Of a stretch of DNA of 64,000 bases, positions 9,318-63,285 are shown one piece after another (positions within the stretch are counted from its first letter, which is position 1; each line of letters opens with the position of its first letter). The DNA lies in the NCBI GenBank assembly GCA_937863685.1, contig CALMGM010000009.1, positions 178,403 through 242,402 on the forward strand. Direction: 5' to 3'. The notes beneath the pieces were generated by a model, which saw only the letters and a list, made by a program, of their open reading frames with translations, had not been told where the DNA came from and searched no databases. Origin of the DNA: an uncultured bacterium. GTDB lineage: Bacteria; Edwardsbacteria; AC1; EtOH8. Made by a program: the position numbers and the translations under genes.

Positions 9318-9322
9318 AGCTT

Positions 9323-11655: not shown

Positions 11656-11699
11656 GTCATTGCGAAAAAGTCAGCATATAAGGCATTCGAAGCAATCCA
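11656..11699. repeat. Intergenic repeat, type B (GTCATTGCGAAAAAG...CGAAGCAATCCA)
   Basis: Shares both termini with 9234-9317. Confidence 0.55.
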
Positions 11700-11715
11700 C
11701 TAATACTTGTATGTT

Positions 11716-24505: not shown

Positions 24506-26836
24506 TTATTTTAGCTTGACGATCTTCCTGGTCTCATCCCCGTCCCTGCTTGATAATCTTACGAAATATATTCCGGCAGATACGGCCTGGCCCTTACTAC
24601 TTTTCCCGTCCCAATTCAAGGTGTATGTCCCAGGATCCAGGACTCCACTTTGTTCTATGCTGACCAGTCTGCCCAGAATGTCATATATCCGGAGTTCTGT
24701 TAAACCGCGGGATGCCACGTTATATCTTATGGTTGTTTTTTCCCTAAGGGGATTGGGCCAGACATCTAATCTTAAAGAAAGATTTTTAGGGTCTTCCCCT
24801 GCATTCTTGTCCTCCACTCCCAAGGCCGGGTTGGTCAGAAAACCCCTGATCAGCGAATCGCACTGAGGGCTGATCCCGGCGCCTCCGGTGTAATAAAGAC
24901 AATATCCGGAACCGCTGCCGCAATATACCCCAGCCAGGATTGTATTCACTGCCCCCAACCTAGCAACCCGCACCCCATTGGCCCCCAGCCCTGACAACCT
25001 CCCAAAGCCCGAAACCGCCGTTCCAATCGTATCATTCGTCTGGATGCCGCTAACTCCAAACGGTTGATCGTACGTCGCAACGATAGCTATGCCAGCGCCA
25101 GTATAACTACTATAACCAGTGGCCCCTACCCAGCCGCTGATGGGTGTGATATTAGTGGTCCCGCAAAGTTCATACGGTGTCTGGCGGGTCAGCAATACCC
25201 GCCCCCCGGCCTCAATATACTGACGAATCGATGCCGTATCTTCGGGGGTTGCCCCATGTTCTATAACCATTGTCTGGTAGGTTGTCCCGTTGATCGGGGG
25301 AACGCTCCACAAGCTGTCCACCGATTCCCAGACGCCTTTCACCAACTCCATCATAGAATGGTCGCCGCCAACCACTGCCGCCTGCCCCGAACCCAGGACC
25401 CATAATGTAACGGTGGAGTCGGCATTCAAGGTATCCACCGAATCTGCAGCTGTAACAGTAATAGCAAACTGCCCGGGGGCCATATCAATTGAAGCTACAA
25501 CCTGTAGCGAACAAGAACCACTGGGATTGATATAGGGGGGATTGAAAATAAAACTGACCTGTCCTGCTTCCGGTTCAGGATTGACAGCCGCGCTGAGTTT
25601 TACCGTGCCGTGATAGTCATTATGTGAATCGATTGAAACCAAAATATTTTCGGTTCCGCCAGGGACAAGGGAGATGGCAATGGGCGTCATGCGTGGCCTG
25701 AAGTCGGGCATATTCTCCCACAGGAAAAGATCCCCCAGATCCTCAGACCCGGAAACAATATCGAGATCCCCATCCAGGTCAATATCATCTGCCTCCAGCG
25801 CCCAGCCGCGTCCGAAATCGCTTCGAAGCACCATCGGGGTCCAGCTAAAACTGTCGTTCCGGAATACGGACAATTCTCCCGGGATCATCCCCACTGCCGC
25901 AATGTCCAGATCGCCGTCGCCGTCAAGATCGCCGCCCCGGACATTCACCGCCCCGCCCAGCTGGTCCGTGACGGTATGTTTTATCCATTGGTTCGCTGCC
26001 AGGTCCTGACAAAGCCAGTATGCTACCTCCTGACATTCGGCACCGGCGGCAATTATATCGAAGAGGCTGTCTCCGTCCATGAGCACCGGCATGGCTATCT
26101 GGGCCCCAGCGAAATCAGAGTTTATTACATGTTCCTCCCAATTTACCGGATCCCCGCCCAGGTTATTCCACCAACAGATCGTATTGGCAGTCTCGGCCGC
26201 CCCGATAACATCTAGATCTCCGTCCCGGTCAATATCGTGAATTGTCACTGTTTTGGCTCCGGCCAAGCTGTCGCATAATGAATACTCCGTCCAGCCCGGG
26301 GTCTCAGCACCGTCGTTATAGAATACCGAAATAGCACCGGGATATGAACTGACCCCTACTACGTCTGTGTGCCCGTCGGCGTTGATGTCAGCGCACATAG
26401 CATCGTGCGCGCCGTAGGGATATCCTATCACCCGTTTGGTCCAGCCTTCAGTTGGGTCGCCGCTGTTCTGCCACCACTCGATCTTGCCCTTATACAATTC
26501 CGTGGCGACGATATCGGGAAAGGTATCATTGTTGATATATGCGATTTCGACCGACATAGCATCATTTATTGCAACATCCACCGTAAACCGCGTCCATTTT
26601 ATGGGATGTCCGCCATCGTTTTTCCACCAGTAAATGCCTGTGCCCGGTATCTCAGTGCCGCCAATGATATCTTTGTCGCCGTCACGGTCAAGGTCAAAGA
26701 TTTTTATGCATGAGATACCCGGGACGTCAAGATCGATGGGCTGCTCAACCAAAGATATGGTTTGGGCCCCGGCAAAATGAAATGATAAAGCCAGGTAAAG
26801 CCAGCCCATTACTATGCTGGTTATGATTCTTTTCAT
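24506..26836 (-). CDS. Secreted FG-GAP/VCBS-repeat protein with T9SS C-terminal sorting domain
   Basis: Signal peptide MKRIITSIVMGWLYLALSFHFAGA. Repeated DxDxDGxxD Ca-binding FG-GAP units (DLDRDGDKDIIGG, DINADGHTDVVG, DIDRDGDLDVIG, GDLDGDGDLDIAAVG). C-terminal VWPNPLREKTTIRYNV...LRIYDILGRLV sorting domain. Confidence 0.7.
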   Translation of the reverse strand: MKRIITSIVMGWLYLALSFHFAGAQTISLVEQPIDLDVPGISCIKIFDLDRDGDKDIIGGTEIPGTGIYWWKNDGGHPIKWTRFTVDVAINDAMSVEIAYINNDTFPDIVATELYKGKIEWWQNSGDPTEGWTKRVIGYPYGAHDAMCADINADGHTDVVGVSSYPGAISVFYNDGAETPGWTEYSLCDSLAGAKTVTIHDIDRDGDLDVIGAAETANTICWWNNLGGDPVNWEEHVINSDFAGAQIAMPVLMDGDSLFDIIAAGAECQEVAYWLCQDLAANQWIKHTVTDQLGGAVNVRGGDLDGDGDLDIAAVGMIPGELSVFRNDSFSWTPMVLRSDFGRGWALEADDIDLDGDLDIVSGSEDLGDLFLWENMPDFRPRMTPIAISLVPGGTENILVSIDSHNDYHGTVKLSAAVNPEPEAGQVSFIFNPPYINPSGSCSLQVVASIDMAPGQFAITVTAADSVDTLNADSTVTLWVLGSGQAAVVGGDHSMMELVKGVWESVDSLWSVPPINGTTYQTMVIEHGATPEDTASIRQYIEAGGRVLLTRQTPYELCGTTNITPISGWVGATGYSSYTGAGIAIVATYDQPFGVSGIQTNDTIGTAVSGFGRLSGLGANGVRVARLGAVNTILAGVYCGSGSGYCLYYTGGAGISPQCDSLIRGFLTNPALGVEDKNAGEDPKNLSLRLDVWPNPLREKTTIRYNVASRGLTELRIYDILGRLVSIEQSGVLDPGTYTLNWDGKSSKGQAVSAGIYFVRLSSRDGDETRKIVKLK

Positions 26837-26966
26837 GATTCTCCTCTCTTTTAAATTTATTTTATTATAACAATGAAAAGGACAAACGTTTGTTTGTATT
26901 TTTATCTTAAAAATATGCCGTTTTATCGGCTTGATCAAGGATTTTATTAATGCACGGATACGCTCC

Positions 26967-48827: not shown

Positions 48828-49310
48828 TCAATTACTATGACCGGTTTGGGGGCCGGACCGGACCTTGTCCAAAATAGCCCGGTGCAGGAACCGGGAGATG
48901 GTTTTGACGCTCTCCGCCACCGGACGGCTCATGGGCACCTCCAGCTGGATCTGGCCGGCCTGGATTCCCAGGGCGATGATCCTGGCCCCGGTTATCTTCT
49001 CCAGGTAATTTCCCAGAAAGGACAACGGCATGGTGTGGGTGGAGTGCATCATGGAGTGCATGTTCTTATGGTCCAGAAAGGCCGTCTCCCCCACCGGCCG
49101 GCCCATGTCGGCGGCGTCGATAAACAGCACCAGGTCGGGCTTTTTATTCCGGACCAGGCCGGAGAAATTCTCGGGATTGGTGCCGGCCACCAGCACTTCG
49201 ACGAACCAGCCGTGATCGCAGCCCTGCAGCAGCATCCTCAGCTCCCGGGCGACCAGGGAGCCCGCCGCATCGTCTCCCATCATCTCGTTTCCGATGCCGA
49301 AGATCATCAT
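48828..49310 (-). CDS. hycI: [NiFe]-hydrogenase maturation endopeptidase (HycI/HyaD family)
   Basis: MMIFGIGNEMMGDDAAG matches the IGNxxxxDDGxG signature. Downstream of the hydrogenase operon. Confidence 0.75.
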   Translation of the reverse strand: MMIFGIGNEMMGDDAAGSLVARELRMLLQGCDHGWFVEVLVAGTNPENFSGLVRNKKPDLVLFIDAADMGRPVGETAFLDHKNMHSMMHSTHTMPLSFLGNYLEKITGARIIALGIQAGQIQLEVPMSRPVAESVKTISRFLHRAILDKVRSGPQTGHSN

Positions 49311-49429
49311 TTTGTCCGCCGCCTCGATGGCCGAAGCCACCGGGTCGCTCCATTCCATATATCCCCCTTTGATCATGCATAAAATGGTCGGACACATAAT
49401 GCCCGACCATCATTGAACCGCCGCCGGAA

Positions 49430-49810
49430 TTATTTATAGACTATCTTCAGCGCTCCGCGGTCGAAGGCGGCATCCTCGAACTCGGAATTCATATGAATAG
49501 CCTTCTTGGGGCATATTTCGGCGCACTGGGCGCAGTGCGAACAGCGGTCCAGATAGAAGGTCATGGAGAATTTCTTGGAGACCTTGCCGGCCTCGTCGGT
49601 GGCCTCGGATTCCTTGTGGATCTCCAGGGCCTCGGACGGGCAGTCCTTGACGCACATCTGGCAGCCGATGCACAAATTGGGATCCATCACCGGGCGGCCA
49701 CGGAATCCCTTGGGAACGCCTATCTTTTCGAATGGATATTGGACGGTGGCCGGCTTTTTGAACAGGTGCTTTAGCACCTCGGGCAGCATCGCTCCTAATC
49801 TTAAACTCAT
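49430..49810 (-). CDS. NuoI/HycF-like 2x[4Fe-4S] ferredoxin subunit
   Basis: CIGCQMCVKDCP and CSHCAQCAEICP motifs. Only the C-terminal 127 codons of the listed 352 aa ORF are real. The start overlaps the nuoH-like stop (ATGA). Confidence 0.8.
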   Translation of the reverse strand: MSLRLGAMLPEVLKHLFKKPATVQYPFEKIGVPKGFRGRPVMDPNLCIGCQMCVKDCPSEALEIHKESEATDEAGKVSKKFSMTFYLDRCSHCAQCAEICPKKAIHMNSEFEDAAFDRGALKIVYK

Positions 49811-50778
49811 TGCAGATACCCCTTCAAGAATATTACGATTACCAGCTGCAGCAGGGCCAGCGGGGCCAGCCATTTCCAGCTGAAGGAAACCATCTGGTCT
49901 ATCCTGAGACGGGCGGTCACCGAACGCATGGCGGCCAGGATGAACACCACTATCAGGGTCTTGACGACGAACCAGATGAACCCGGGGATCAGCCCGCCCG
50001 GAAATCCGCCCAGGAACAAAGCAGCGATCATTCCGGCGCCCACCACCATCTGAATGTCGGCCAGCAGGCGGAACATGGCCAGCTTGCGGCCGGAATATTC
50101 GGTGAAGGCTCCGCCCACCACTTCGGTCTCGGCGTGGGGGATATCGAACGGCACCCTCTCCAGCTTGGCCTGCAGGGCCACCACCGCCACTGCGAAGGCA
50201 AAGACGTTGATCAGCAGGTACCAGGGATTGGCCTGGTAGTACGCGGCGATCTCGGCCATTCTCCAGCTGCCGGCCATCACCGCCGGGGACAGGATGGCCA
50301 GGAACATCGGGACCTCGTAGGCGAACAGCAGGGTCAGCACCCGGACCCCGCCGATGGCGGAATACATGCTGGCCGAGGCCCAGCCGGCCAGGAAATAGGC
50401 GAAACTGGGAAGCGCCAGCAGGTAGGCGATGACGATAAGGTCCCCCTGGAATGAGGTGGCCGATTGAAAGGCGTCGCTGAAGTGCCATACCGGCAGCAGC
50501 AGACCGGCGGTCAGCACCGAGGTCAGGGCCAGGATGGGAACGGCATTGAACAGCTTTTTATCGGCCTTGTCCGGAACGATATCCTCCTTGGCCATCAATT
50601 TGACGAAATCGGCGATGGGCTGCAGGATGCCGTGACTGCCGGTGTACATGGGGCCCATCCGGTTCTGGAATTTGGCATACAGCTTCCGATCGATCCATTC
50701 CACGAAAGTGGAGTAGACGAACAGGAACAGCAGGCCCGGATAGACCAGCAGATAGAGAAAAATTTTCAATATATCCAT
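49807..50778 (-). CDS. NuoH/ND1-like membrane subunit (HycD/EchB family)
   Basis: Eight-TM protein with the conserved NuoH loop YAKFQNRMGP. Confidence 0.85.
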   Translation of the reverse strand: MDILKIFLYLLVYPGLLFLFVYSTFVEWIDRKLYAKFQNRMGPMYTGSHGILQPIADFVKLMAKEDIVPDKADKKLFNAVPILALTSVLTAGLLLPVWHFSDAFQSATSFQGDLIVIAYLLALPSFAYFLAGWASASMYSAIGGVRVLTLLFAYEVPMFLAILSPAVMAGSWRMAEIAAYYQANPWYLLINVFAFAVAVVALQAKLERVPFDIPHAETEVVGGAFTEYSGRKLAMFRLLADIQMVVGAGMIAALFLGGFPGGLIPGFIWFVVKTLIVVFILAAMRSVTARLRIDQMVSFSWKWLAPLALLQLVIVIFLKGYLQ

Positions 50779-50792
50779 CTTTACCTCTTATA

Positions 50793-51980
50793 TTATAGCT
50801 TGATTCCGCGTTTGCGATAGAAATCGATCCCGTACTGGCGCAGGGTCTCCCAGTTCCAGACCTTCTCGTTGCCCTTGGGATCGGTGATGATGGCCATCCG
50901 GTCGGTGCATGACAGGCAGGGATCGATAGCCGCCATCACGATGGGAATATCCGCCACATATCCGCCCCGGAGCATGTACAAAGTGGCCGGCCAATTGGCC
51001 AAAGTAGGGGCCCTGACCTTCACCCGATCCGGTTTGTCGGTGCCGTTAGAGCGGATGTAGTGAATACACTCGCCCCGCTGGGCCTCGGCCCGGCTGACCA
51101 CCTCGCCCTCGGGAACCTTGCGGGGAGCCTTGACCCGGATATCGCCCGCCGGCAGATTTTTGAGGATATATTCGCAGATATTATACGATTCCATCAGTTC
51201 CTTGGCCCGAACCACCACCCTGGCCAGAACATCTCCACCCTCGTCGGTGACTATGTTGAACGGTATATGCTCGCCGAAGCCGGCGTAGGGATCGTCCTTG
51301 CGAACGTCGAAATCAACCCCGGAAGCCCTGGTGGTTGGGCCGGCGGCGTTAAGTTCCAATGCCTTGGCCTTGGGCAATACGCCGACTCCGGCGATCCTGG
51401 CCACTAATGTCGGCTCGGAGGCTCCGATGTTCAGGTAATACGGAGTCCGGGCCTTGAGGGCGGCGATGCCGTCCAGGGCTTTTTTGATCTGCATCTCGTC
51501 CAGATCGCGCCGCACCCCGCCGAAGGTCTGCATGCCGTAATTGACCCGGTTGCCGGAGATCATCTCCAGAATATCCTCGACGATTTCGCGGTCCCGCCAG
51601 GTGTACATGAAGAAAGTATCGAAGCCGACCTCGTGCCCGGCCACCCCCAGCCATAGAAGGTGGGAATGAACCCGTTCCAACTCGCCCATCAAACAGCGGA
51701 TGAACAGGCCCCGCTTGGGAGGCTCGATGCCCATCAATTTTTCTACCCCTTGAGCGAAAACGGTCATATGAACGTTGGAGCAGATGCCGCAGACCCTTTC
51801 CAGCAAATAAAGGTCCTGTATATAGGTCCGTTCCTCACAGCCCTTCTCTATTCCCCGGTGATTATAGCCTAACCGAAGATCGGCATCCACCACCGTTTCG
51901 CCGTCCACCATGAAGCGGAAAGAAGTGGGCTCTTTTAAAGCCGGATGCTGCGGGCCTACCGGTAATATGAACGTGCTCAT
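50793..51980 (-). CDS. Group-4 [NiFe]-hydrogenase large subunit (NuoD position)
   Basis: L1 motif ERVCGICSNVH (RxCGxCxxxH). L2 motif DPCLSCTDR (as in HycE DPCYSCTDR). These are followed by a ~34 aa C-terminal extension, consistent with protease processing. Confidence 0.85.
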   Translation of the reverse strand: MSTFILPVGPQHPALKEPTSFRFMVDGETVVDADLRLGYNHRGIEKGCEERTYIQDLYLLERVCGICSNVHMTVFAQGVEKLMGIEPPKRGLFIRCLMGELERVHSHLLWLGVAGHEVGFDTFFMYTWRDREIVEDILEMISGNRVNYGMQTFGGVRRDLDEMQIKKALDGIAALKARTPYYLNIGASEPTLVARIAGVGVLPKAKALELNAAGPTTRASGVDFDVRKDDPYAGFGEHIPFNIVTDEGGDVLARVVVRAKELMESYNICEYILKNLPAGDIRVKAPRKVPEGEVVSRAEAQRGECIHYIRSNGTDKPDRVKVRAPTLANWPATLYMLRGGYVADIPIVMAAIDPCLSCTDRMAIITDPKGNEKVWNWETLRQYGIDFYRKRGIKL

Positions 51981-52438
51981 TCTATGGCTCCTTTCTCCCG
52001 GTTATAATGCCAGTCCTTGCGCAAGGGGTACACGCCCTGGGGCCAGTCCTCGGGCAGTACCAGCGGACGCATATCGGGATGGCCCTCAAAGTTGATGCCC
52101 ACCAGATCATGGACCTCCCTCTCGTAGAATATCGCTCCGGGATAGACCGCGATGGTGGTGGAAAGCGTCGGGTTGCTCTTGTCGGTCTGGAGGCGCAGGG
52201 TCAGAGACATGCCGTTTTGGGCAAAATGATACAGCGCCTCCAGCTTGTCCCCGGTGTCGCGCCCGGTAATGGTGGAAAGGTGATAGAAGCCGGCTTTCTC
52301 CTTGAGAACCTTGCAGGTCTCCAGGGCATCGGCCTTATCCACCCACAAGGTCATCCGGCGAGGAAAGGGATTGATCAACTCCTTGATCTTGCCCTTTAGA
52401 TTATCCTCCAGGATCTTTTTTATTTCCTCAAAGGTCAT
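51977..52438 (-). CDS. NuoC-like (30 kDa) subunit
   Basis: Size and the conserved segment FEREVHDLVGINFEGHPD. Confidence 0.75.
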   Translation of the reverse strand: MTFEEIKKILEDNLKGKIKELINPFPRRMTLWVDKADALETCKVLKEKAGFYHLSTITGRDTGDKLEALYHFAQNGMSLTLRLQTDKSNPTLSTTIAVYPGAIFYEREVHDLVGINFEGHPDMRPLVLPEDWPQGVYPLRKDWHYNREKGAIE

Positions 52439-52485
52439 TTTGATCTCCTGTATTCTTTATTCTGTATTCTATATTCGCCTGATCG

Positions 52486-52917
52486 TTATCCGTTTTTCAA
52501 AGCGCCCAGCAGTTTAGCCACTCCGTCGATGATGGCATCCGGTTTGGCCGCGCATCCGGGAATATAGGCATTGACCGGGATCACCTGATCGACCCCCTCC
52601 AGCACGCTGTAGCAGCCCCGGAAGACGTTTCCGGAGCAGGCGCAGGCTCCCACCGCCACCACGAACTTGGGCTCGGCCATCTGCTCGTAGATCCTCTTCA
52701 AGCGCGCAGCCTGCTGGCGGGTCACCGCTCCGGTGCACACCAGCACGTCGGCATGGCGGGGGGTTGATTTTAGCAGCACCCCGAAGCGCTCCAGGTCGAA
52801 CCGGGGCATCAGGGCGGCCAGGGTTTCGATGTCGCATCCGTTGCAGGCTCCGCTGTTGAAATGGAGCAACCACGGCGAGGACACTCGGGACCATTTGACG
52901 AGTTTTTCTAAAGCCAT
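52486..52917 (-). CDS. NuoB-like hydrogenase small subunit ([4Fe-4S] N2-type)
   Basis: Motifs GACNGCDIE, GACACSG and PGCAAKPD. Start placed at MALEKL because the upstream repeat element occupies 52949-53013. Confidence 0.8.
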   Translation of the reverse strand: MALEKLVKWSRVSSPWLLHFNSGACNGCDIETLAALMPRFDLERFGVLLKSTPRHADVLVCTGAVTRQQAARLKRIYEQMAEPKFVVAVGACACSGNVFRGCYSVLEGVDQVIPVNAYIPGCAAKPDAIIDGVAKLLGALKNG

Positions 52918-52948
52918 AATTGTATCCTTAATTATTATATACTCTGGG

Positions 52949-53013
52949 GTCATTCCCGCAAAAGCGGGAATCCAGTTCTTTTATCTGGATACCTGCCTTC
53001 GCAGGTATGACAT
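52949..53013. repeat. Bipartite hairpin repeat (GTCATTCCCGCAAAAGCGGGAATCCAG + GGATACCTGCCTTCGCAGGTATGACAT), REP/BIME-like, operon-internal
   Basis: Two adjacent perfect 8-9 bp stem hairpins. Same architecture as 63330-63384. Confidence 0.75.
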
Positions 53014-53024
53014 ATTAATACAAT

Positions 53025-53369
53025 TTATTTCAGGATCAACGCGATGATGGAGAACCAGATCATCAGCAGGTAGAAGATCCCCAGGATGGCAAAGGCCAGT
53101 GAACCGCCGGGTATGGTGGCGATCACCAGGGCCGCCACGTGCATCATGGTGAAGAACAGGGCAGCATAAAAGAACTGGCGGTAGCCCACCTGGATCTTGC
53201 GGGCGGGAAAGTCCTCGCCGCAGGCGTACTGGGCCAGCTTGGCGCCGTCAGCCTTGAGCTTGGGGGCCATCACATCGCCCATCTTATAGATAAGATAGGA
53301 GATCAGGGCGAAGAGGCCGAACCCGATGAACGGGGTGATCAGTATATTCCACTGGCTGAAAATTGACAT
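53025..53369 (-). CDS. NuoA/ND3-like membrane subunit
   Basis: KLAQYACGEDFP matches the ND3 K.SPYECGFDP motif. Three TM helices. Confidence 0.7.
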   Translation of the reverse strand: MSIFSQWNILITPFIGFGLFALISYLIYKMGDVMAPKLKADGAKLAQYACGEDFPARKIQVGYRQFFYAALFFTMMHVAALVIATIPGGSLAFAILGIFYLLMIWFSIIALILK

Positions 53370-53509
53370 GTTGATATCCTCGTTTATTTTTTGCTTTTTA
53401 TTTTGGTGCCTTTCCCGCGGAGAACATGAAATTACATTTTTAGTTCATTTCGCGGATTTCCCGCCATTATCAGGATAGCCCATATAGGCGGGCAGGAGCG
53501 GGTAAGTTC

Positions 53510-53809
53510 CTATCCCTTCAGCTTGGTCAGGCTGCGGACGTCCAGACTGCCGGTGTTGCGGTAGGCGTTGATCACCAAGGCCAGGGCCACCGCCACGATG
53601 GAGACCTCGATCACGATGAAGGTGATCACCAGGCTCTGCGAGAAGAAGGTCTCCCCCCGGGCGTATCCGGCGGTAATGAATGATAGTACCGCCGATTTGG
53701 CCATGATCTCCAGGCCTATCAGCAGCTTGATCATGTTACGGCTGGTCAGCAGGCAGTACAGCCCGATGAAGAACAGCAGACCGACGAATATCAGATTGGT
53801 CACTACCAT
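53510..53809 (-). CDS. NuoK/MnhC-like membrane subunit
   Basis: 99 aa with three TM helices and a conserved mid-membrane Glu (GLEIMAKSA). Confidence 0.7.
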   Translation of the reverse strand: MVVTNLIFVGLLFFIGLYCLLTSRNMIKLLIGLEIMAKSAVLSFITAGYARGETFFSQSLVITFIVIEVSIVAVALALVINAYRNTGSLDVRSLTKLKG

Positions 53810-54336
53810 AGCTTGTGCCCTCCATCCTTGGCTTTTTCAGCGTCTATCTTATCCTGGGCGGTGAGCGGCTTCTCCCGGAACAGGGCCAGCACCCCGAACA
53901 CGCCTCCAAAGATCACCGCTATCTGGCCGATCAGATCCATGGAGCGGATGCCCCACAGGGTGGCCCCGAAGCTGGAGGTGGCATTGCCGTATCCGGCCGG
54001 GGTGTTGGAGAACAATCCCTTCATCACCAGCAGGTCGATGATCCCGAACAACACCAGGAACAGCGGAAACAGGTACAGCGGCCAGCGGGATTCCTTGACC
54101 GGCTCCTCGTCCTTGGTCAGGGCGATGGTGGAAACGAACAGCACCGTGATCAGCCCGGCCACCACCGACAGTTCGAACACCGCGGCATAGGGCGAATCCA
54201 TCCGGTACAGCACCACCGCCAGCACGGCGCTCATGAAGGCCAGGCTCAGGGCCGCCCGCAGCAGGTCCTTGAAGAACACCGCCATGCAGGCGAAACCGGC
54301 CAGCATCAATAGCAGTATAAGGTTTATTATGTCCAT
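53803..54336 (-). CDS. NuoJ-like (MnhB-related) membrane subunit
   Basis: The AAVFELSVVAGLITVLFV segment resembles the NuoJ Y.GA..VLF motif. Confidence 0.6.
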   Translation of the reverse strand: MDIINLILLLMLAGFACMAVFFKDLLRAALSLAFMSAVLAVVLYRMDSPYAAVFELSVVAGLITVLFVSTIALTKDEEPVKESRWPLYLFPLFLVLFGIIDLLVMKGLFSNTPAGYGNATSSFGATLWGIRSMDLIGQIAVIFGGVFGVLALFREKPLTAQDKIDAEKAKDGGHKLW

Positions 54337-54396
54337 TTTGACTCCAGTATGTATATTTGAAGTTTACGATGTTATGAAGTTGTGAGGTTCAGATTA

Positions 54397-54774
54397 TTAA
54401 AAGCAGAACTTATCAGCCTTAAAATCCATAGCGTTCAACATGCCGATAATATTTTCGTATTCACGGTCAAGTTTATTAAAAAAGTCCTCAGAAATATAGT
54501 TGCACGACAAACAAAACTCAAGCCAAGTCTGGGTTTCAGCAGCTTCCTGCATGCTGTCTGACAATTTGTTGATAAATACTTTCTTGTATTTTCTTTTACG
54601 CCAAGCTTCAGATAGATTGGAGCATACCGAACGGGAAGACCTTCTGATTTGATCCGTCAACTAATATTTTTCGTCTGAGGGAAAAGTCTTACTTATCTCA
54701 AATATCTCCATGGCACAGCAAAATGCCGCTTTGTAAACCTTTCAGTCTCTTACCGTACGTATCCTATCGCTCAT
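54397..54774 (-). pseudogene. Four-helix-bundle protein (TIGR02436 / 23S rRNA intervening-sequence-type) gene disrupted by two in-frame stops (TGA at 54742-54744, TAG at 54661-54663, + strand coordinates)
   Basis: Manual minus-strand translation gives MSDRIRTVRD*KVYKAAFCCAMEIFEISKTFPSDEKY*LTDQIRRSSRSVCSNLSEAWRKRKY...EDFFNKLDREYENIIGMLN. It is colinear with canonical family members (..[43 protein letters not shown]..). It is embedded in an AT-rich ~500 bp spacer. Confidence 0.7.
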
Positions 54775-54832
54775 CGCTACTCTCGATCCGATCGTCTTAT
54801 CTTCTCAACATCAGATCTTCAATCAGCCAACA

Positions 54833-56314
54833 TCATTGTCCGAACATTGAAAAACCGTTGGCTCCGATGGCATTGCTCAGAGCGGTCATCCCCGGCTGGA
54901 TCAGCTTGGCAGTCACCCAGGGATAGAACAGGCCCACCAGCAGGCACAGGGTCGCCAGACAGAAAGTGGCCAGGGCCATGTAGAACGGCACTTCCTTGAC
55001 CTTCTCTAAGCCCACCGCCAGTTTACCGAAGAAGGCCTTCCTCTGCATCAGCAGGAAGTACCACAGGGTCAGGATGCTGGTGCCGATGGCGATGGCCGCC
55101 ACTCCGACATGATTGGCCTCCACCAGGGCAACGATGATCAGCAGTTTGCTCCAGAACCCGTTGAAGGGCGGTATCCCGGCGATGGAGAAGGTGCCGATGG
55201 TGGTGGTCAGGCTGGTGATGGGCAGCTTGTGGCCCACCCCGCCGAGTTTGGAAAGGTCCCTGGTGCCGGTGGCATACTCGGTGGCCCCGGCGTCAAGGAA
55301 CAGCAGGCTCTTGAAGGTGGCGTGGTTGAACAGGTGGAACAGGGCTCCCATGATCCCCAGCGGTGTTCCCAGGCCCAGGCCCACCACTATATACCCGATC
55401 TGGCTGATGGATGAGTAGGCCAGCATTCGTTTGAAATCGTTCTGCCCCAGGGCGATCACCGCGCCGATGACCATCGAGGCCACCCCCAGCCAGATCATGG
55501 CCTGGGAGACCGAGGCCGGCAGGCCGAAGATGTCGTAGACCACCCGGGTCAGGGCGTAGATGCCGGAGACCTTGATCAGCACTCCGGACAGCATGGCCGA
55601 AATGGGAGCCGGGGCCGAGGGATGGGCGTCCGGCAGCCAGGCATGGAACGGCACCATGGCCGCCTTCAGTCCGAAGCCCATCAGGAACAGGGCCAGGCAC
55701 AGGCCGATCAGCTTGACATTCATGCCGGTTCCCACCATCGAAGCCAGCTCCTTGAAGTTCATGGTGCCGGTCATCAGATAGATGAATGACATGGCCAGCA
55801 GGATGCCGGTAGTGGCGACCACCGACAGCATCAGGTACTTGAAGGCCGCCTCCACCTCATCGTGCTTCTGGCCGAAGGCCACCAAAGCGTACGAGGCCAC
55901 CGCCGCCACTTCCAGGAAGACGTACATGTTGAACAGGTCGACGGTCAGCACCAGCCCGTTCATCCCGGCCACCATCAGCAGGAACAGGGCGTAGTAAGAT
56001 CCCTTGGCCCCGTAATGTTCCATGTAGTTGATGGAATAGATGCAGGCAAACAGCGAGATCAGGCTGATGGTGATCAGCAGCAACAGCGAGAAGCCGTCCA
56101 GCATCAGTCCGGCCTTGAGGGGCAGACCGATGGCCGCGGCATCCCACAGGATGCGGTGCCCGGCCGATATCAGGCGGATCTGGGACAGGCTCAAGGCCAG
56201 CATGGCCGCCATGGTGGCCACCCCCAGGATATCGGGCAGTCCTTTCCACAGCCTGGAGACCAGCGGCATCAGGGCTGCCATGGCCAGGGGTATGACTATG
56301 AATAAAAGCAACAT
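54833..56314 (-). CDS. NuoN/MnhD-like antiporter-type subunit
   Basis: 493 aa with ~14 TM helices and the conserved broken-helix Lys/Glu pattern of the Mrp/NuoLMN family. Confidence 0.75.
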   Translation of the reverse strand: MLLLFIVIPLAMAALMPLVSRLWKGLPDILGVATMAAMLALSLSQIRLISAGHRILWDAAAIGLPLKAGLMLDGFSLLLLITISLISLFACIYSINYMEHYGAKGSYYALFLLMVAGMNGLVLTVDLFNMYVFLEVAAVASYALVAFGQKHDEVEAAFKYLMLSVVATTGILLAMSFIYLMTGTMNFKELASMVGTGMNVKLIGLCLALFLMGFGLKAAMVPFHAWLPDAHPSAPAPISAMLSGVLIKVSGIYALTRVVYDIFGLPASVSQAMIWLGVASMVIGAVIALGQNDFKRMLAYSSISQIGYIVVGLGLGTPLGIMGALFHLFNHATFKSLLFLDAGATEYATGTRDLSKLGGVGHKLPITSLTTTIGTFSIAGIPPFNGFWSKLLIIVALVEANHVGVAAIAIGTSILTLWYFLLMQRKAFFGKLAVGLEKVKEVPFYMALATFCLATLCLLVGLFYPWVTAKLIQPGMTALSNAIGANGFSMFGQ

Positions 56315-56346
56315 GTTTATGCTCCGTTATATTTCGAAAATATGAA

Positions 56347-58227
56347 TTACTTTACCAGGACCGCCAGGTAGATAACCAGCAGGGCGAATCCCCCCACCAC
56401 CCAGGCCAGATAATTGGCGTAAAGCCCGTTGTGGTATTCCTTGAGCACCCCGGTGGCCACCCCGCCGACGAAGACGATCAGCCTTTCGTAGACGGCGTCT
56501 ATCCCCCGGTCCACCACCTTGAACACCGTCCAGGCGGCGCCCTTCAGCAGGCCGTTTACGAACCACTCGTAGATGTCGAAGGCCCGGGCCTCGGCCCAGT
56601 CATACAGGGTATGCATCACCGGCAGGTTATGGATGGGCTCGGAGGCCAGGTAGGCCTGGCCCTGGCCCTTCTTGACGCCGTACTGGTGGATCAGCCAGGC
56701 GATCACCAGGCAGGCCATGGAGACCCAGACTATCCAATTGAGATGGAATACCCAGAACTCCATATGCCCGGCGTGGCCCTCCAGGATGGCCCTTCCCTCC
56801 AGCACCGGCTGGATCAGGTATTTTAAGGGCAGTTTGCTGTAGACCCCGAACAGGATGCAGCCCAGGGCGATCACCAGCATGGGGATGGTCATGGCCAGGC
56901 CGGGATCCTTGGGAGCCTTGTTGGGCATCTCGGAACTCTGCTGTCCGAAGTAGGTGGCGTGGCCCAGCTTTAAAAACGAGGCGAAGGTGAAGATGGCGCC
57001 GATCCAGGCGGCTATGGGGAATATCATTTTGCCGGTCTCCACCGCCCCGTGGAACACCAGCTCCTTGGAGAAGAAGCCGTTGAAGGGCGGCACCCCGGAG
57101 ATGGCGAAGGCCGCCACCCAGAAGGCCACCCCGGTGATGGGCATCAGCTTGAACAGCCCGCCCAGTTTTTTAAGCTCGGTGGTGCCGGCCTGCTTCTCCA
57201 CCGCCCCGCCGGTCAGGAACAGGGTGCACTTGTACATGGCGTGGTTGAGCATGTGGAACAGGCCGCCCACGATCCCGGCCGGTACCCCGGTGCCGATGCC
57301 TAGGATCATGTAGCCCACCTGGCTGATGGCGTGGAACGACAGTAATTTTTTGTAATCCTTCTGGACCAGGGCCATCATCACCGCCAGAACTATGGTGATG
57401 GCGCCGATGGCCATCAAAAAGATGGACATGGAGCTGTTCATGTGGATGGTGAACATTTCAAGGGAGATCCGGCCCAGCATGTAGATGCCCAGCAGTTTCT
57501 CCAGGGCCGCCGGCAGGTAGGCCATGAACGGCAGCGGCGCGTCGATGGCGGCGTCCGGGATCCAGGTGTGGAAAGGCATGGCGCCGGCCTTGGCCATGGC
57601 CCCCAGGCCCATCAGCACGAAGGCGGCCGCCCCCAGACCCATCGGCTCCAGGTGGATCTCGGACATGGTCAGGGTGCCGGACAGATGCCAGGCGAAGATG
57701 ATGCCCAGTATCATGGCGAAATCGGCGATGCCGGAGATCACCAAAGCCTTGGTGGCGGTCTTGAAGGCCTCCTTGTTGCCTATTGAGATCATGCCGTAGA
57801 GGGTCGCTAATAGCGACTCCCAGAAGAACAGCATTAATACGAAATTATTTGAAAGGATGGCTCCGTTGGCCAGCCCGGCGGTCAGCAGGAAGTAGGCAAA
57901 ATATTCCTTGGAGCGTTCCTTGCCGTCCATGAAGGAGGCGGTGTAGAGGGCCAAGAGGATCTCGAAACCGGCCGCCGCCAGCAGGATGAACTTGGGAAAG
58001 TGGTAGGCCCATAGGTCAAAGTTTATCCCGAAGCTGGTCCAGGGCACGAATAATCTTAAACCCTCGCCCCCGGCCTTGAAGATGACCGCCGCATAGTACA
58101 TGGTGATGGCGGTGGCGATCAGGGCCAGGATCTCCTTGCCCCATTTGACGGATTTGGGCAGGATGAAGGTCAGCACCCCGGCGATGATGGGGACCAGGAT
58201 CGGTATCAGCAGAATGTTCGGATTCAT
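56347..58227 (-). CDS. NuoL/MnhA-like antiporter-type subunit (longest member)
   Basis: 626 aa. The NuoL-like length and TM pattern include a C-terminal extension. Confidence 0.75.
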   Translation of the reverse strand: MNPNILLIPILVPIIAGVLTFILPKSVKWGKEILALIATAITMYYAAVIFKAGGEGLRLFVPWTSFGINFDLWAYHFPKFILLAAAGFEILLALYTASFMDGKERSKEYFAYFLLTAGLANGAILSNNFVLMLFFWESLLATLYGMISIGNKEAFKTATKALVISGIADFAMILGIIFAWHLSGTLTMSEIHLEPMGLGAAAFVLMGLGAMAKAGAMPFHTWIPDAAIDAPLPFMAYLPAALEKLLGIYMLGRISLEMFTIHMNSSMSIFLMAIGAITIVLAVMMALVQKDYKKLLSFHAISQVGYMILGIGTGVPAGIVGGLFHMLNHAMYKCTLFLTGGAVEKQAGTTELKKLGGLFKLMPITGVAFWVAAFAISGVPPFNGFFSKELVFHGAVETGKMIFPIAAWIGAIFTFASFLKLGHATYFGQQSSEMPNKAPKDPGLAMTIPMLVIALGCILFGVYSKLPLKYLIQPVLEGRAILEGHAGHMEFWVFHLNWIVWVSMACLVIAWLIHQYGVKKGQGQAYLASEPIHNLPVMHTLYDWAEARAFDIYEWFVNGLLKGAAWTVFKVVDRGIDAVYERLIVFVGGVATGVLKEYHNGLYANYLAWVVGGFALLVIYLAVLVK

Positions 58228-59693
58228 CTCAATACCCCCAATATATCATGAATGGCAGGATTTCCCAGAACGTCGCGGACGGCGATATTGGCCAGGTCCA
58301 TGGGGTATTTCACCAGGATCCCGGCGGCCAGCGAAAGGACGGCCAGCGAGGCCACCACCCACACCATGGTCGGGGTGCCCTCCTTGTGGGCATGAATGCT
58401 GGTATCGCGGGCTTCGCCCAGAAAGACCAGGGTGAACAGCCGCATTAAATAGACCAAGGTCAGCAGGGCGGTGAAGATGGCCAGGGCGCCGATGGCGATG
58501 TGGTTGGACTTGATGATGCCCTGGATGACCATGAACTTGGAGAAGAAGCCTCCGAAGGGCGGCACGCCCACGATGGAGAAGACGCACATGATGAAGGCCA
58601 CCGCGGTGACGGGCATGGCCTTGATCAGCCCGCCCATCTTGGTGATGTCCTTGGTGCCGGTGCCGTGCTCGATGACCCCGGCGGCCAAAAAGAGTCCGCC
58701 CTTGGCCAGTCCGTGCATCAGGATGAAAAGCAGGGCTCCGGCCACCCCGATGGTGTTGAAGGCCGCCAGGCCCATGAAGATGTAGCCGATTTGGCTGACG
58801 GTGGACAGGGCCAAAATTCTCTTTATATTCGTTTCGATCAGGGCCGCGCTGGCCGAGACCATGGCCGAGATCAGGCCCAGTATCATCAGGTAGGTCTGCC
58901 AGTCGCCGGGGATGACGAAGGTGTAGTTGAATATCCGGGCGAAGGCGTAGACCCCGATCTTGACCAGCACCGCGGCGTGCAGCAGGGCGGTCACCGGGGT
59001 GGGCGCCACGCCGGCGTCAGGCAGCCAGGTGTGGAACGGCAAAGTGGCGCTCTTGGCGAAGATGCCCATGGTGATCAGGGCCACCGCCAGTCCGCCGATG
59101 GGGAAGCCGCGCATGTCCAGCATGTTGAAGGTGCCGGTCTTGGCATAGACCAGGGCGAAGCCCAGCAGCATGAACACCGCTCCCCCGGCCGTCACCAAAA
59201 AGGCCTTGTCGGCCTTGATCACCACTTCCTTGTCGCGGAAGAAGCCGATCAAACGCCAGGAACAGATGCCGGTGATCTCCCAGAAGACGTACATCAGGAT
59301 CAGGTTGGCCGAGAATACCAGCCCCATCATGGCTCCCAAAAACAAAACCACCATCAGAAAGTATTCCTGCTGATAGTGGTAATCCTTGATATAACCCAGG
59401 GAGTAGATGATGATCAGGGTGCTGATCAGGGCCGAGGCGATGGCCATGAAGACCGACAGCCCGTCCACCACGAAGGTGGCATCCACCCCCAGCCCGATGG
59501 CCCTCTGGAAGACGTGGGTCTCCCCCGAGAAGGCCGCCGGCAGAAGCGTGACGGCAAAAAAAGTAGTGGCCAGCCCCAGAATCACCGCCCAGGCGTTACG
59601 CCCTGGCTTGGAGGCCAGCCCTATCAAAGGCAAGGTAAAGGCCCCGATGATGGGGACCAGTATCGTTGCCAGCAAAGAGAATTCCCACCCCAT
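58224..59693 (-). CDS. NuoM/MnhD-like antiporter-type subunit, first gene of the operon
   Basis: 489 aa. Its 4-nt overlap with the next gene indicates translational coupling. Confidence 0.75.
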   Translation of the reverse strand: MGWEFSLLATILVPIIGAFTLPLIGLASKPGRNAWAVILGLATTFFAVTLLPAAFSGETHVFQRAIGLGVDATFVVDGLSVFMAIASALISTLIIIYSLGYIKDYHYQQEYFLMVVLFLGAMMGLVFSANLILMYVFWEITGICSWRLIGFFRDKEVVIKADKAFLVTAGGAVFMLLGFALVYAKTGTFNMLDMRGFPIGGLAVALITMGIFAKSATLPFHTWLPDAGVAPTPVTALLHAAVLVKIGVYAFARIFNYTFVIPGDWQTYLMILGLISAMVSASAALIETNIKRILALSTVSQIGYIFMGLAAFNTIGVAGALLFILMHGLAKGGLFLAAGVIEHGTGTKDITKMGGLIKAMPVTAVAFIMCVFSIVGVPPFGGFFSKFMVIQGIIKSNHIAIGALAIFTALLTLVYLMRLFTLVFLGEARDTSIHAHKEGTPTMVWVVASLAVLSLAAGILVKYPMDLANIAVRDVLGNPAIHDILGVLR

Positions 59694-59737
59694 AAAAACT
59701 CCTAATGCTGATGTATTAAATTAAATGGAAACAAGAT

Positions 59738-59766
59738 ATTTTACAATAAATGGCCCGGCATGTCAA
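59738..59766 (-). promoter_or_regulatory. Consensus sigma70 promoter (TTGACA-N17-TAAAAT, minus strand) ~40 nt upstream of the hydrogenase operon start
   Basis: The + strand shows ATTTTA (59738-59743) and TGTCAA (59761-59766). Confidence 0.6.
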
Positions 59767-59900: not shown

Positions 59901-60026
59901 TTATAAAACAGACGAAACCTAGCCTTTCGGCTAACTCACCCCGGTCATTCCCCTTCGCCTTAATATATAGCCATGACCTTCCCCTCTCTTTTAAAGAGAG
60001 GGGAATAAAAGGGGTGAGTTAAATAT

Positions 60027-60050
60027 AAAACCCCGCCTTTCGGCGGGGTT
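60027..60050 (-). terminator. Hairpin AAAACCCCGCCTTTCGGCGGGGTT downstream of gene 60067-61050. The same hairpin recurs at 61131 and 61573.
   Basis: Perfect 8 bp GC-rich stem. The sequence is identical at three sites. Confidence 0.6.
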
Positions 60051-60066
60051 ACTGCGGAAGAATGCA

Positions 60067-61050
60067 CTATTTATCCCGTGTTTTGTAAAATTGTTCGAAC
60101 ATCTTTTTTGCGGTTTTCGATTTTACAAGAGGCACCTCTGTGACTAATGGTTTGATGGCTGAAAAAAATGTAACGAGACGATAGCCTATAAGTGGGGAAT
60201 CGGTGCCTTCTGTCCGCTTATACTTACCATTGTAATAAATGTCTAGTGAGTATTTCGGTCCGGTTGAATCGTAAGTATCTTTTTTAAAGCGCATCCTATC
60301 AAGAGAACTGGTTTTTAACAGGTCTATAAAACGCCTATACAGTGAATCGCTCAAACAACCCTGATAATATCCCTGTTTCAATGCGTTTTTGTTGCCATAC
60401 TTATAAAGGCCCCATAATTGCATTGCGAATTTATTTCCATATAAATACATGGTTTTAGTGCTGTCAATTATTATCCTTAGGTCCCTTTCTATGAGCTTGC
60501 CTTGGGGTAAATATATCCCCCCTGTGTTGCCGCTTCCTATCGTCCCACCAGTGCCCTGTAGCCTGTTATGTTCGCAAAATAATAATCGGTCGAAAGAAAA
60601 TAATGTATCTTTTAAAATAGAGTATAGGGTTATCGTACGAGTACTATCAAATAAGTACCCGTCCTCAACAGCATGTCTATATTGCTTCCACTTGCTGTTG
60701 CGATAGGGACGGAGAACAAGCGAATCTGGATTCTGGTGTTCGATGATAAAGCAAACACCTATAGTATCAGCCGGTTGAAGATTATCTTCCGACATCGTGT
60801 CTGACAGGGATTGTGCCAGGCTACCCCCTCGTATCAAACGGGGCGTGAATAATTCCAGGCTATCCTCCCTCAAGGTATAATTAAACACATTCCAGTCGGT
60901 GCTGAAATCAAAAAATGCTACCGTATCAACAATGCGAAGGCTTTCAGAACTATTGCCCACCCAAAACCCTAAAATCGTATTTGCGTCCCTGGCGCCTGTC
61001 GCAATAGAAGTCAGCGAGACGCATAACGCAATAGTAAGAAATATTTTCAT
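60067..61050 (-). CDS. Secreted hypothetical protein in a low-GC island
   Basis: Signal peptide MKIFLTIALCVSLTSIATGA. No recognisable domain. Visibly A+T-rich codon usage. Confidence 0.5.
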   Translation of the reverse strand: MKIFLTIALCVSLTSIATGARDANTILGFWVGNSSESLRIVDTVAFFDFSTDWNVFNYTLREDSLELFTPRLIRGGSLAQSLSDTMSEDNLQPADTIGVCFIIEHQNPDSLVLRPYRNSKWKQYRHAVEDGYLFDSTRTITLYSILKDTLFSFDRLLFCEHNRLQGTGGTIGSGNTGGIYLPQGKLIERDLRIIIDSTKTMYLYGNKFAMQLWGLYKYGNKNALKQGYYQGCLSDSLYRRFIDLLKTSSLDRMRFKKDTYDSTGPKYSLDIYYNGKYKRTEGTDSPLIGYRLVTFFSAIKPLVTEVPLVKSKTAKKMFEQFYKTRDK

Positions 61051-61098
61051 AAGGCCCCCTTGTGATCTAAATCATGCCGAATGGCATTGCTTAATTAG

Positions 61099-61160
61099 CA
61101 TACCAAAACCAACTTCCGTCTGTCAACCAGAAACCCCGCCTTACGGCGGGGTTTTGTTGC
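61099..61160. repeat. ~60 nt repeat module (CATACCAAAAC...TGTCAACCAGAAACCCCGCCTTACGGCGGGGTT) ending in the shared hairpin. Second copy at 61541-61598.
   Basis: The two copies are ~80% identical across ~55 nt. Confidence 0.65.
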
Positions 61161-61178
61161 TTATATTTAACTATCATT

Positions 61179-61445
61179 TCATTTACTACAATATAAATAA
61201 TATAACAAAAACATTTGGAATAAACCCAATAAAATCAAAATAACTCCACCTATTTTTTTAGATTTAAAATTACTGGCTTGCGCTTTCATGTGATTTTTCT
61301 CATACATATCAAACCACCACTTAGGAGTCCTGTTTTTTAATAATTTCCGTTGTCCCTCAAAATAACTATTAGGTATGAACATAAAGCCAATACCCAAAAC
61401 TATCATTATGATTGAATATATGAATAGCTTAATATTTACAGACAT
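61179..61445 (-). CDS. Small two-TM membrane protein, hypothetical, low GC
   Basis: 88 aa with two hydrophobic helices (IIMIVLGIGFMFI, GGVILILLGLFQMFLLYYL). Confidence 0.4.
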   Translation of the reverse strand: MSVNIKLFIYSIIMIVLGIGFMFIPNSYFEGQRKLLKNRTPKWWFDMYEKNHMKAQASNFKSKKIGGVILILLGLFQMFLLYYLYCSK

Positions 61446-61540
61446 ATTTAAAACACCTAAATAAGTTTATGGAGTGTCCACTGTCGTTACATATAACACG
61501 TTTCCAAGCGCAATAATTTTGATAGTTAAACATTTTGAAT

Positions 61541-61598
61541 CATACCAAAACAATCCTCTACCTGTCAACAAGAAACCCCGCCTTTCGGCGGGGTTTCT
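61541..61598. repeat. Second copy of the ~60 nt repeat/terminator module, also serving as the groEL terminator
   Basis: CATACCAAAACAATCCTCTACCTGTCAACAAGAAACCCCGCCTTTCGGCGGGGTTTCTTCTG. Confidence 0.65.
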
Positions 61599-61635
61599 TC
61601 TGAATTCAATATTCTAAATTCGGTATTCCCGGATA

Positions 61636-63285
<1,650 letters not shown>

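Follow-up and report, generated by a model that had tools for sequence, protein, structure and literature searches.

A group 4 [NiFe] hydrogenase operon with an apparently complete set of complex I membrane arm genes in an uncultured Edwardsbacteria genome

Introduction

The operon analyzed here lies on the minus strand of a 64,000-nucleotide stretch of DNA (the window) from an uncultured bacterium of the Edwardsbacteria (GenBank assembly GCA_937863685.1, contig CALMGM010000009.1, positions 178,403 to 242,402). It spans positions 48828 to 59766; all positions are given in window coordinates. The operon probably encodes one 11-subunit membrane complex, in which a group 4 [NiFe] hydrogenase sits on a full complex I membrane arm and couples ferredoxin-driven H2 evolution to ion pumping. 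The described systems closest to such a complex are the membrane-bound hydrogenase Mbh of Pyrococcus furiosus (group 4d; PDB entry 6CFW), Hydrogenase-4 of Escherichia coli (Hyf, group 4a), and 11-subunit complex I. The nearest solved relatives of its large subunit belong to group 4d (Mbh) and group 4a (HycE), with nearly equal scores.

Mbh shares with the operon products the L1 and L2 ligands of the Ni-Fe site, a glutamate before the first beta-hairpin of the large subunit, and the CxxC motif of the small subunit. It has no NADH module and is fed by ferredoxin, which is also the presumed donor of the window complex, and the NuoJ-like and NuoK-like proteins find their best or near-best matches in MbhD and MbhG. 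In contrast to the window complex, Mbh has a single antiporter-like subunit (MbhH, whose lateral helix is short) and an Mrp-derived Na+ module (MbhA, MbhB, MbhC, and MbhF, homologous to MrpE, MrpF, MrpG, and MrpB), no gene of which is present in the window operon. Furthermore, the NuoJ-like protein of the window is one protein, whereas its counterpart in Mbh is split into MbhD and MbhE, and the window NuoH scores 174 bits with complex I but 100 bits with MbhM.

Hyf is the only described hydrogenase type that has three antiporter-like subunits (HyfB, HyfD, and HyfF) together with NuoH- and NuoK-like subunits (PMC3144371). The large subunit and the NuoB- and NuoI-like proteins of the window score nearer to Hyf and Hyc than to Nuo, and both enzymes pose the same energetic puzzle. 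However, Hyf carries HyfA, pairs with formate dehydrogenase, and has NuoC fused to the large subunit. It has neither NuoA nor a separate NuoJ, and HyfC gives 43 bits with NuoH, compared with 165 bits for the window protein.

The 11-subunit forms of complex I (Nuo11, the cyanobacterial NDH-1 core, and Fpo without FpoF) consist of subunits A, B, C, D, H, I, J, K, L, M, and N without NuoEFG, presumably receive electrons from ferredoxin, and possess the NuoL lateral helix. The window operon resembles them in all these respects, and its NuoH, NuoK, and NuoA are of the complex I type. It differs from them by a Ni-Fe center in place of the quinone pocket, by a CxxC small subunit, and by an attached HycI. 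Their genes run from A through N, whereas in the window the antiporter genes are followed by J, K, A, B, C, D, H, and I.

An analysis from 2011 reported that all 11-subunit complexes are devoid of the C-terminal Cys pair and that NuoA and NuoJ do not occur in hydrogenases (Moparthi and Hagerhall, PMC3144371). The same analysis nevertheless inferred an 11-subunit, Ni-Fe-bearing ancestor, and a survey from 2026 found no NuoA relatives outside complex I (PMC13399641). The hydrogenase-related complexes Ehr, Mbx, and Hyq have likewise been discussed as links between group 4 and complex I; the Ni-Fe ligands are lost in them, whereas all four are kept here. For Heimdallarchaeia, complex-I-like [NiFe] hydrogenases of groups 4j, 4m, 4p, and 4q have been predicted (bioRxiv 10.1101/2024.07.04.601786). 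They represent the same concept, namely, an apparently active Ni-Fe NuoD that is fed by ferredoxin and has no quinone access, but their membrane arm is shortened, whereas that of the bacterial family is full.

In HydDB, group 4g is a loosely clustered, polyphyletic, and uncharacterized group, for which ferredoxin oxidation coupled to H2 evolution and ion translocation has been proposed. One of its subclades has the nine-gene organization of Ech2 from Thermoanaerobacter kivui, unlike the window operon. A "group 4g, Mrp-linked Mbh" has been reported in metagenome-assembled genomes (MAGs) of Cloacimonadota and of Omnitrophota, a phylum in which the operon occurs. MAG studies probably file the enzyme under HydDB group 4g or 4e, and the "group 4g Mbh linked to Mrp" of Omnitrophota and Cloacimonadota, perhaps also the "group 4e" of Riflemargulisbacteria, may be this same operon. 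A literature search, whose coverage left out most subscription journals, found no paper describing the architecture.

Results

Organization of the operon

Analysis of open reading frames (ORFs) with Pfam and NCBIfam revealed 12 intact genes and one decayed gene on the minus strand, running from 59693 to 48828. A ribosome-binding site (AGGAG) is positioned 7 nt upstream of the first ATG of the operon, and the terminator of the gene upstream of the operon was located at 60029 to 60050. An Rfam scan of the window gave no match. The features, in the direction of transcription, are as follows.

59738 to 59766, minus strand: sigma-70-like promoter, TTGACA and TAAAAT with a 17-nt spacer, 11 of 12 consensus positions; a consensus match only

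58224 to 59693, minus strand: antiporter-like subunit 1, 489 aa, NuoL/MrpA-type core without lateral helix; Proton_antipo_M, E value 7e-71

56347 to 58227, minus strand: NuoL-like subunit, 626 aa, with C-terminal lateral helix and final anchor helix; Proton_antipo_M, E value 1e-53

54833 to 56314, minus strand: antiporter-like subunit 3, 493 aa, MrpD/NuoM/NuoN type; Proton_antipo_M, E value 1e-73

54397 to 54760, minus strand: decayed gene for a four-helix-bundle protein (23S rRNA intervening sequence protein, PF05635), an insertion and not a subunit

53803 to 54336, minus strand: NuoJ-like subunit, 177 aa; Oxidored_q3, 41 bits (cutoff, 33.2), and MbhD, 28.4 bits

53510 to 53809, minus strand: NuoK-like subunit, 99 aa; Oxidored_q2, E value 3.6e-23

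53025 to 53369, minus strand: divergent NuoA-like subunit, 114 aa, three predicted membrane helices and a YaCGE motif

52486 to 52953, minus strand: NuoB-like small subunit, ORF of 155 aa; Oxidored_q6, E value 6e-31

51977 to 52438, minus strand: NuoC-like subunit, 153 aa; Complex1_30kDa, E value 1e-32

50793 to 51980, minus strand: [NiFe] large subunit, 395 aa, L1 and L2 motifs and a 34-aa C-terminal extension; Complex1_49kDa and NiFeSe_Hases

49807 to 50778, minus strand: NuoH-like subunit, 323 aa; NADHdh, E value 1e-88

49430 to 49810, minus strand: NuoI-like subunit, 126 aa, two [4Fe-4S] clusters, Fer4 dicluster match; its start overlaps the nuoH stop by 4 nt

48828 to 49397, minus strand: HycI-type maturation endopeptidase, longest ORF 189 aa; Pfam HycI, E value 2.4e-12

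The start of the NuoB-like protein is likely Met13, which gives 143 aa, the same length as in relatives, and the start of HycI likely lies near 49310 to 49358. A preliminary description of this DNA had given these operon coordinates and listed 11 subunit genes followed by a protease gene. The coordinates and the list were right, except that the decayed PF05635 gene between antiporter-like gene 3 and nuoJ had been overlooked. The gap before hycI, stated there as 120 nt, measures 32 nt for the longest ORF and 119 nt for an MMIFGIGNE start. The labels M-, L-, and N-like were loose: the first gene encodes a NuoL/MrpA-type core, the second a full NuoL, and the third a protein of the MrpD/NuoM/NuoN type. 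The gene order had been called unusual, which proved wrong: the order antiporter-like 1, L, antiporter-like 3, J, K, A, B, C, D, H, I is fixed throughout the family, as seen in the 59 loci long enough to judge. HycI follows directly 3' of nuoI in 36 of the 59 loci with a whole operon.

Catalytic module

Searching all PDB sequences with the large subunit revealed MbhL from P. furiosus as the best match (6cfw_L, E value 6e-89, 43% identity), followed by HycE from E. coli (7z0s_E, E value 7e-87) and Nqo4 from Thermus (5e-63). A structural model of the large subunit, of moderate confidence (predicted local distance difference test [pLDDT], 72.6; low around L1), matched HycE, MbhL, and then Nqo4 best in Foldseek. 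In the alignments with MbhL and HycE, the motifs RVCGICSNVH (residues 62 to 71) and DPCLSCTDR (residues 353 to 361) match the Ni-Fe ligand motifs position by position. The four Ni-Fe cysteines, the motif arginine, and the motif histidine are unvarying in 85 of 85 family members. All 85 possess a C-terminal tail of 30 to 49 aa; in the window protein, the 34 aa after Arg361 align with the tail of HycE that is cleaved on maturation. Comparison with the quinone ligands of Thermus Nqo4 showed that His38 and Tyr87 are replaced by Lys16 and Gly65, respectively. The neighboring Glu17 is invariant and is aligned to the glutamate of the "LEEPEKF" segment of MbhL.

The cluster-binding subunits were compared in the same way. 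In the NuoB-like protein, C37, C40, C103, and C134 each show at least 95% conservation across the family and form a CxxC...C...C pattern (GACNGC). The tandem cysteines that ligate N2 in NuoB, a hallmark of complex I (PMC4758237), are absent, and ligation is of the hydrogenase type instead. All eight cysteines of the NuoI-like protein are at least 95% conserved.

HycI contains three fully conserved columns, Asp, Asp, and His, which are found in the window copy and in its relatives. They match D16, D62, and H90 of E. coli HycI, which we take to be its metal-binding residues. Homologues of hypA to hypF adjoin the operon in 8 of 84 related loci.

The preliminary description had already pointed to a NuoD homologue with both Ni-Fe motifs, to a C-terminal tail of about 34 aa, and to a HycI-type protease downstream, and each of these observations is corroborated by the alignments and the Pfam match. 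As judged from these residues, the catalytic site is predicted to be a hydrogenase site and not a quinone site.

Membrane arm

The TM5 glutamate and the TM7, TM8, and TM12 lysines (TM, transmembrane helix) are kept in all three antiporter-like subunits. For antiporter-like subunit 1, the best NCBIfam models were NuoL, MrpA, and HyfD, and Glu139 (TM5), Lys213 (TM7), Lys245 (TM8), and Lys385 (TM12) are at least 95% conserved in the family. For antiporter-like subunit 3, the best models were those of the MrpD subfamily and "NADH dehydrogenase subunit N," and E134, K217, K248, K335, and K389 are conserved. Scores to the E. coli proteins do not clearly split these two subunits into M and N.

The NuoL-like protein is covered by NCBIfam NuoL models over residues 5 to 623 and by the Mycobacterium smegmatis NuoL match over residues 16 to 620. 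It aligns with E. coli NuoL through the last residue, including the FD-x-Y motif at the start of the lateral helix. Its AlphaFold2 model (pLDDT, 78) contains helices at residues 530 to 595 followed by a transmembrane helix at residues 601 to 625, and gave full-length Foldseek matches to NuoL, ND5, NdhF, and MrpA. Residues E137, K213, K244, K333, and K387-E388 are conserved in the family; Lys387-Glu388 is aligned to the "SKD" of E. coli NuoL, presumably Lys399-Asp400.

The NuoH-like protein clearly belongs to the complex I type: its top 23 PDB matches are all NuoH, ND1, or NdhA chains of complex I or NDH-1 (174 bits for Nqo8), whereas MbhM, HycD, and MbsM gave 100, 75, and 72 bits. The PDB matches of the NuoK-like protein include MbhG, E. 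coli NuoK, and NdhE, and its membrane glutamates E34 and E68 are conserved in the family. The N-terminal half of the NuoJ-like protein is MbhD-like, and MbhD is its best PDB match (9e-5).

The 114-aa protein required a family profile. As a single sequence, it gave no Pfam match at default thresholds and no PDB match even at an E value of 10. A profile built from 28 family members matched ND3, NuoA, or NdhC chains in 23 of 24 PDB matches, at full length and with a best E value of 7e-4, and the YaCGE motif was aligned with the Y/F-ECG motif of these chains. Furthermore, 27 of the 28 members touch PF00507 (Oxidored_q4) below the threshold (best E value, 1.7e-5; window copy, 0.018). The protein is predicted from this profile to be a divergent NuoA. 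The identity claimed for it in the preliminary description thus stands on the family profile and not on the single sequence. With it and the full-length NuoL, the Pfam and NCBIfam assignments support the complete 11-subunit complex I set, including a full membrane arm, that had been proposed there.

Linkage of the antiporter genes to the hydrogenase genes

Antiporter-like gene 3 and nuoJ are separated by 496 nt in the window, compared with a median of 3 nt in related loci. The gap is this wide because a decayed, low-GC PF05635 gene has been inserted. The decayed gene matches PF05635 (7.5e-22) and TIGR02436 (1e-21), contains two in-frame stops, has a GC content of 36 to 42% in surroundings of 55 to 62%, and is absent from all relatives examined. 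Gene junctions in related loci overlap or are a few bases apart, with an H-to-I gap of -4 nt, and the antiporter genes are, judging from this spacing, predicted to be translationally coupled to the rest of the operon in relatives. Every gene of the operon was assigned to a Nuo-type family by Pfam and NCBIfam, and no MrpB-, MrpC-, MrpE-, MrpF-, or MrpG-type gene was found in it. In the 59 loci, the antiporter genes keep their order and are positioned immediately upstream of nuoJ. They do not form a separate Mrp operon; this result and the finding that the 496-nt gap holds no terminator-like site are in line with what had been described before.

Decay of the operon as a consequence of the pseudogene insertion was considered and rejected: the 11 genes are intact, and every conserved residue that was checked is kept.

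Additional genes were observed at other junctions. In a 91%-identical relative (GCA_029216075.1; loci L001, positions 11237 to 12082, and L002), a 281-aa ORF without a Pfam match lies between the large-subunit gene and nuoH, and in the same relative PMT_2 and Trm112p genes lie between hycI and murA. The intergenic junctions of the operon seem, from gene content, to accept foreign genes.

Similarity to complex I and to hydrogenases

Operon proteins were compared by pairwise HMMER scores with the E. coli Nuo, Hyf, and Hyc proteins and with PDB chains, a comparison that measures similarity and not phylogeny. The large subunit scored 296 bits with HycE and 157 bits with NuoD, and it was nearer to Hyc and Hyf than to Nuo, as were the NuoB- and NuoI-like proteins. 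NuoH scored 165 bits with E. coli NuoH and 75 to 78 bits with HycD and HyfC. NuoK scored 46 bits with E. coli NuoK, compared with 10 bits for HyfE scored in the same way. The large subunit, NuoB, NuoH, and NuoK of the window are all nearer to Nuo than the hydrogenase subunits of E. coli itself are. By sequence similarity, the head is hydrogenase-like and the connector (NuoH, NuoK, and NuoA) is complex I-like. The earlier placement of the operon as an intermediate between Mbh/Ech-type hydrogenases and complex I is upheld in terms of these scores; phylogeny is not part of that support.

Among 1.8 billion cluster representatives, both CxxC motifs are present in nearly every neighbor that shares about 42% identity or more with the large subunit, and Cys-less NuoD-like proteins appear only at 41% identity or less. 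A ranking of 150 cluster representatives against E. coli NuoCD, which is confounded by NuoC fusions, gave no indication that the family is unusually close to NuoD.

Distribution and variants

Proteins 84 to 96% identical to the large subunit come from MAGs of Candidatus Edwardsbacteria, and Edwardsbacteria proteins from Rifle share 90% clusters with the window proteins. A scan of one genome per GTDB species gave at least 590 matches. The best 80 of them belong, among others, to Edwardsbacteria/UBP2, WOR-3, TA06, Aminicenantes/Acidobacteriota, Omnitrophota, Phycisphaerae, Bacillota, Spirochaetota, Elusimicrobia, Margulisiibacteriota, and Ratteibacteria. The shared gene order was seen in about 60 loci, which represent at least 10 phyla. 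The complex had been called rarely characterized before, which holds for experiments and not for its occurrence: the enzyme type is common in uncultured anaerobes yet experimentally unstudied.

Variants of the layout were observed in three loci. In an Actinomycetota MAG (L046), a second B-C-D-H-I set is positioned directly after hycI. In a MAG labeled "Methanobacteriota archaeon" (L037), K comes first, followed by three antiporter-like genes and then by A, B, C, D, H, I, and HycI, and no match of the J or NuoL type was obtained. One locus (L027) contains an additional antiporter-like gene upstream.

The public names of identical or 90%-identical proteins conflict for the genes at 50793 to 51980, 56347 to 58227, and 49807 to 50778. 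They include "NADH dehydrogenase," "NADH-quinone oxidoreductase subunit D/L/H," "nickel-dependent hydrogenase large subunit," "membrane-bound hydrogenase subunit alpha," and "formate hydrogenlyase subunit 3." Databases in general label parts of the operon variously as NADH dehydrogenase, NuoD, NuoL, hydrogenase, or Mrp.

Search for an electron input module

A tblastn search with NuoE, NuoF, NuoG, HyfA, and HydN as queries, though not with formate dehydrogenase, detected no such gene in the window or in the 10 kb on either side of the operon at 84 related loci. A single weak HydN match falls at about the position of nuoI in related loci. The operon genes, all of the Nuo type, include no other input module for NADH, formate, or CO, with the same limit for formate dehydrogenase, and the remaining genes of the window are housekeeping genes only.

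Other features of the window

Several short palindromes occur in the 370-nt region upstream of the operon. Between groEL and the operon, positions 60001 to 62000 form a low-GC stretch (43%, compared with about 55% elsewhere) with ORFs at 60067 to 61050 and 61179 to 61445 on the minus strand; it includes a 327-aa ORF without a Pfam match. Three consecutive plus-strand ORFs of 755, 327, and 199 aa (13455 to 15722, 15779 to 16762, and 16788 to 17387), located upstream of a SurA-like gene, had no Pfam match at an E value of 1e-4. Large secreted proteins with FlgD Ig-like and type IX secretion C-terminal sorting domains are encoded at 9293 to 11371 (plus strand) and 24506 to 26938 (minus strand), and one of them contains FG-GAP repeats. 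The sorting-domain proteins fit an organism of the Fibrobacteres-Chlorobi-Bacteroidetes group.

Discussion

In the predicted complex, the catalytic module would consist of the large subunit, the NuoB-like subunit with one proximal [4Fe-4S] cluster, the NuoC-like subunit, and the NuoI-like subunit with two [4Fe-4S] clusters. NuoH, NuoA, NuoJ, NuoK, and two antiporter-like subunits would make up the membrane arm, with NuoL and its long lateral helix at the distal end. Electrons from reduced ferredoxin would enter at the NuoI-like subunit, and the three [4Fe-4S] clusters would carry them on to the Ni-Fe site for the reduction of protons to H2. The released energy would drive the export of protons, or possibly Na+, with the NuoH/A/J/K channel and all three antiporter-like subunits serving as ion paths. 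HycI would cut the large subunit after Arg361 once the cofactor has been inserted.

The energy yield was calculated from standard potentials. Ferredoxin at -450 to -500 mV and the H+/H2 couple at about -266 mV (1 Pa H2, pH 7) give 35 to 45 kJ per 2 electrons, which pays for about 2 to 3 ions at 150 mV. Four protons cost 58 kJ. The yield lies below this value, and therefore the ratio known from complex I, 4 H+ for every 2 electrons, is unlikely under ordinary conditions. The enzyme may pump fewer ions, may need very low H2 or H2-scavenging partners, or may run reversibly or backwards.

Several points weigh against a ferredoxin-driven, H2-evolving pump of 11 subunits. Three antiporter-like pumps look oversized for electron transfer from ferredoxin to protons. 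Ferredoxin as the partner is suggested by the absence of another input module only. No hyp gene was found in the 64-kb window. NuoA and NuoJ were assigned from weak scores, and the lateral-helix part of the NuoL-like model has a pLDDT of 38 to 57, although low C-terminal values would be expected for an isolated clamp. Weak promoter-like sites lie inside the 496-nt insertion, so that co-transcription in this genome is only predicted. Finally, the best 80 of the at least 590 matches are all MAGs.

One alternative is the same complex working in reverse, with H2 being oxidized and several inflowing protons per 2 electrons pushing these uphill onto ferredoxin; the antiporter-like subunits would then serve as a high-gear energy input. 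Eha, Ehb, and Ech work in this direction in methanogens. The mismatch vanishes if an ion gradient is consumed, the direction is not fixed by sequence, and Ech-type group 4 enzymes are described as physiologically reversible (HydDB table). On the other hand, MAG studies generally infer that the hosts (Aminicenantes, Omnitrophota, and Cloacimonadota-like bacteria) are fermenters disposing of reductant, genes for autotrophy are not visible in the 64-kb window, and the nearest structurally known relatives, Mbh and formate hydrogenlyase, evolve H2 in vivo. We regard the reverse direction as unlikely, though H2 evolution is not firmly established as the main one.

A second alternative concerns the unity of the operon. 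The locus could contain two independent neighbors, a three-gene cation/proton antiporter and an eight-subunit Ech-like hydrogenase. This would agree with the 496-nt gap and its weak promoter-like sites between the two blocks, and in some MAG papers Mbh and Mrp of the "group 4g Mbh linked to Mrp" are described as distinct entities. However, the gap is due to a decayed foreign gene, relatives have a median of 3 nt at this junction in an order fixed across phyla, and neither Mrp small-subunit genes nor a terminator-like site was found. Moreover, the lateral and anchor helices of the NuoL type make sense only as a clamp on neighboring subunits. Two separate systems are therefore very improbable.

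The chance that the operon encodes an ordinary 11-subunit complex I, that is, a ferredoxin:quinone oxidoreductase like Nuo11, NDH-1, or Fpo, with vestigial cysteines, is close to negligible: the public names NADH dehydrogenase and NuoD/L/H, the complex I-type NuoH, and the NCBIfam scores for NuoD (311 bits) and FpoD (296 bits) speak for it, but these scores are under the curated cutoffs of 360 and 600 bits, the four Ni-Fe cysteines are invariant in the 85 members, whereas true 11-subunit complexes I lack the C-terminal pair (Moparthi and Hagerhall, PMC3144371), the quinone ligands are replaced by Lys and Gly, NuoB contains CxxC and not tandem CC, the tail is predicted to be cleavable with HycI adjoining, and hyp genes adjoin the operon in relatives.

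A single ferredoxin-driven complex that evolves H2 is the likely reading. The enzyme is a member of the group 4 [NiFe] hydrogenases whose full architecture appears to be undescribed, while its genes are already abundant in public MAGs and its concept has an archaeal precedent. The inconsistent naming has a practical consequence, since metabolic reconstructions may score a respiratory complex I where an H2-evolving enzyme sits.

The operon would represent a present-day enzyme with the composition predicted for the ancestor (PMC3144371). It is a tentative and rather doubtful proposal that the ancestor of complex I was itself an 11-subunit complex with a full membrane arm and a Ni-Fe site on NuoD, and that the family is sister to all complex I. 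If the family is truly sister to all complex I, and its hydrogenase head was not grafted onto a complex I arm at a later time, the lateral helix and the arm with three pumps would be older than the switch from proton reduction to quinone reduction, and the coupling machinery of complex I would be drivable without quinone chemistry. Current models of complex I coupling could then be tested naturally on this complex. Current models link pumping by complex I to quinone reduction. A Ni-Fe site joined to the same NuoH/A/J/K connector and to three antiporter-like pumps would show what drive this machinery needs, and the complex would also show how many ions can be moved by a reaction of about 0.2 V.

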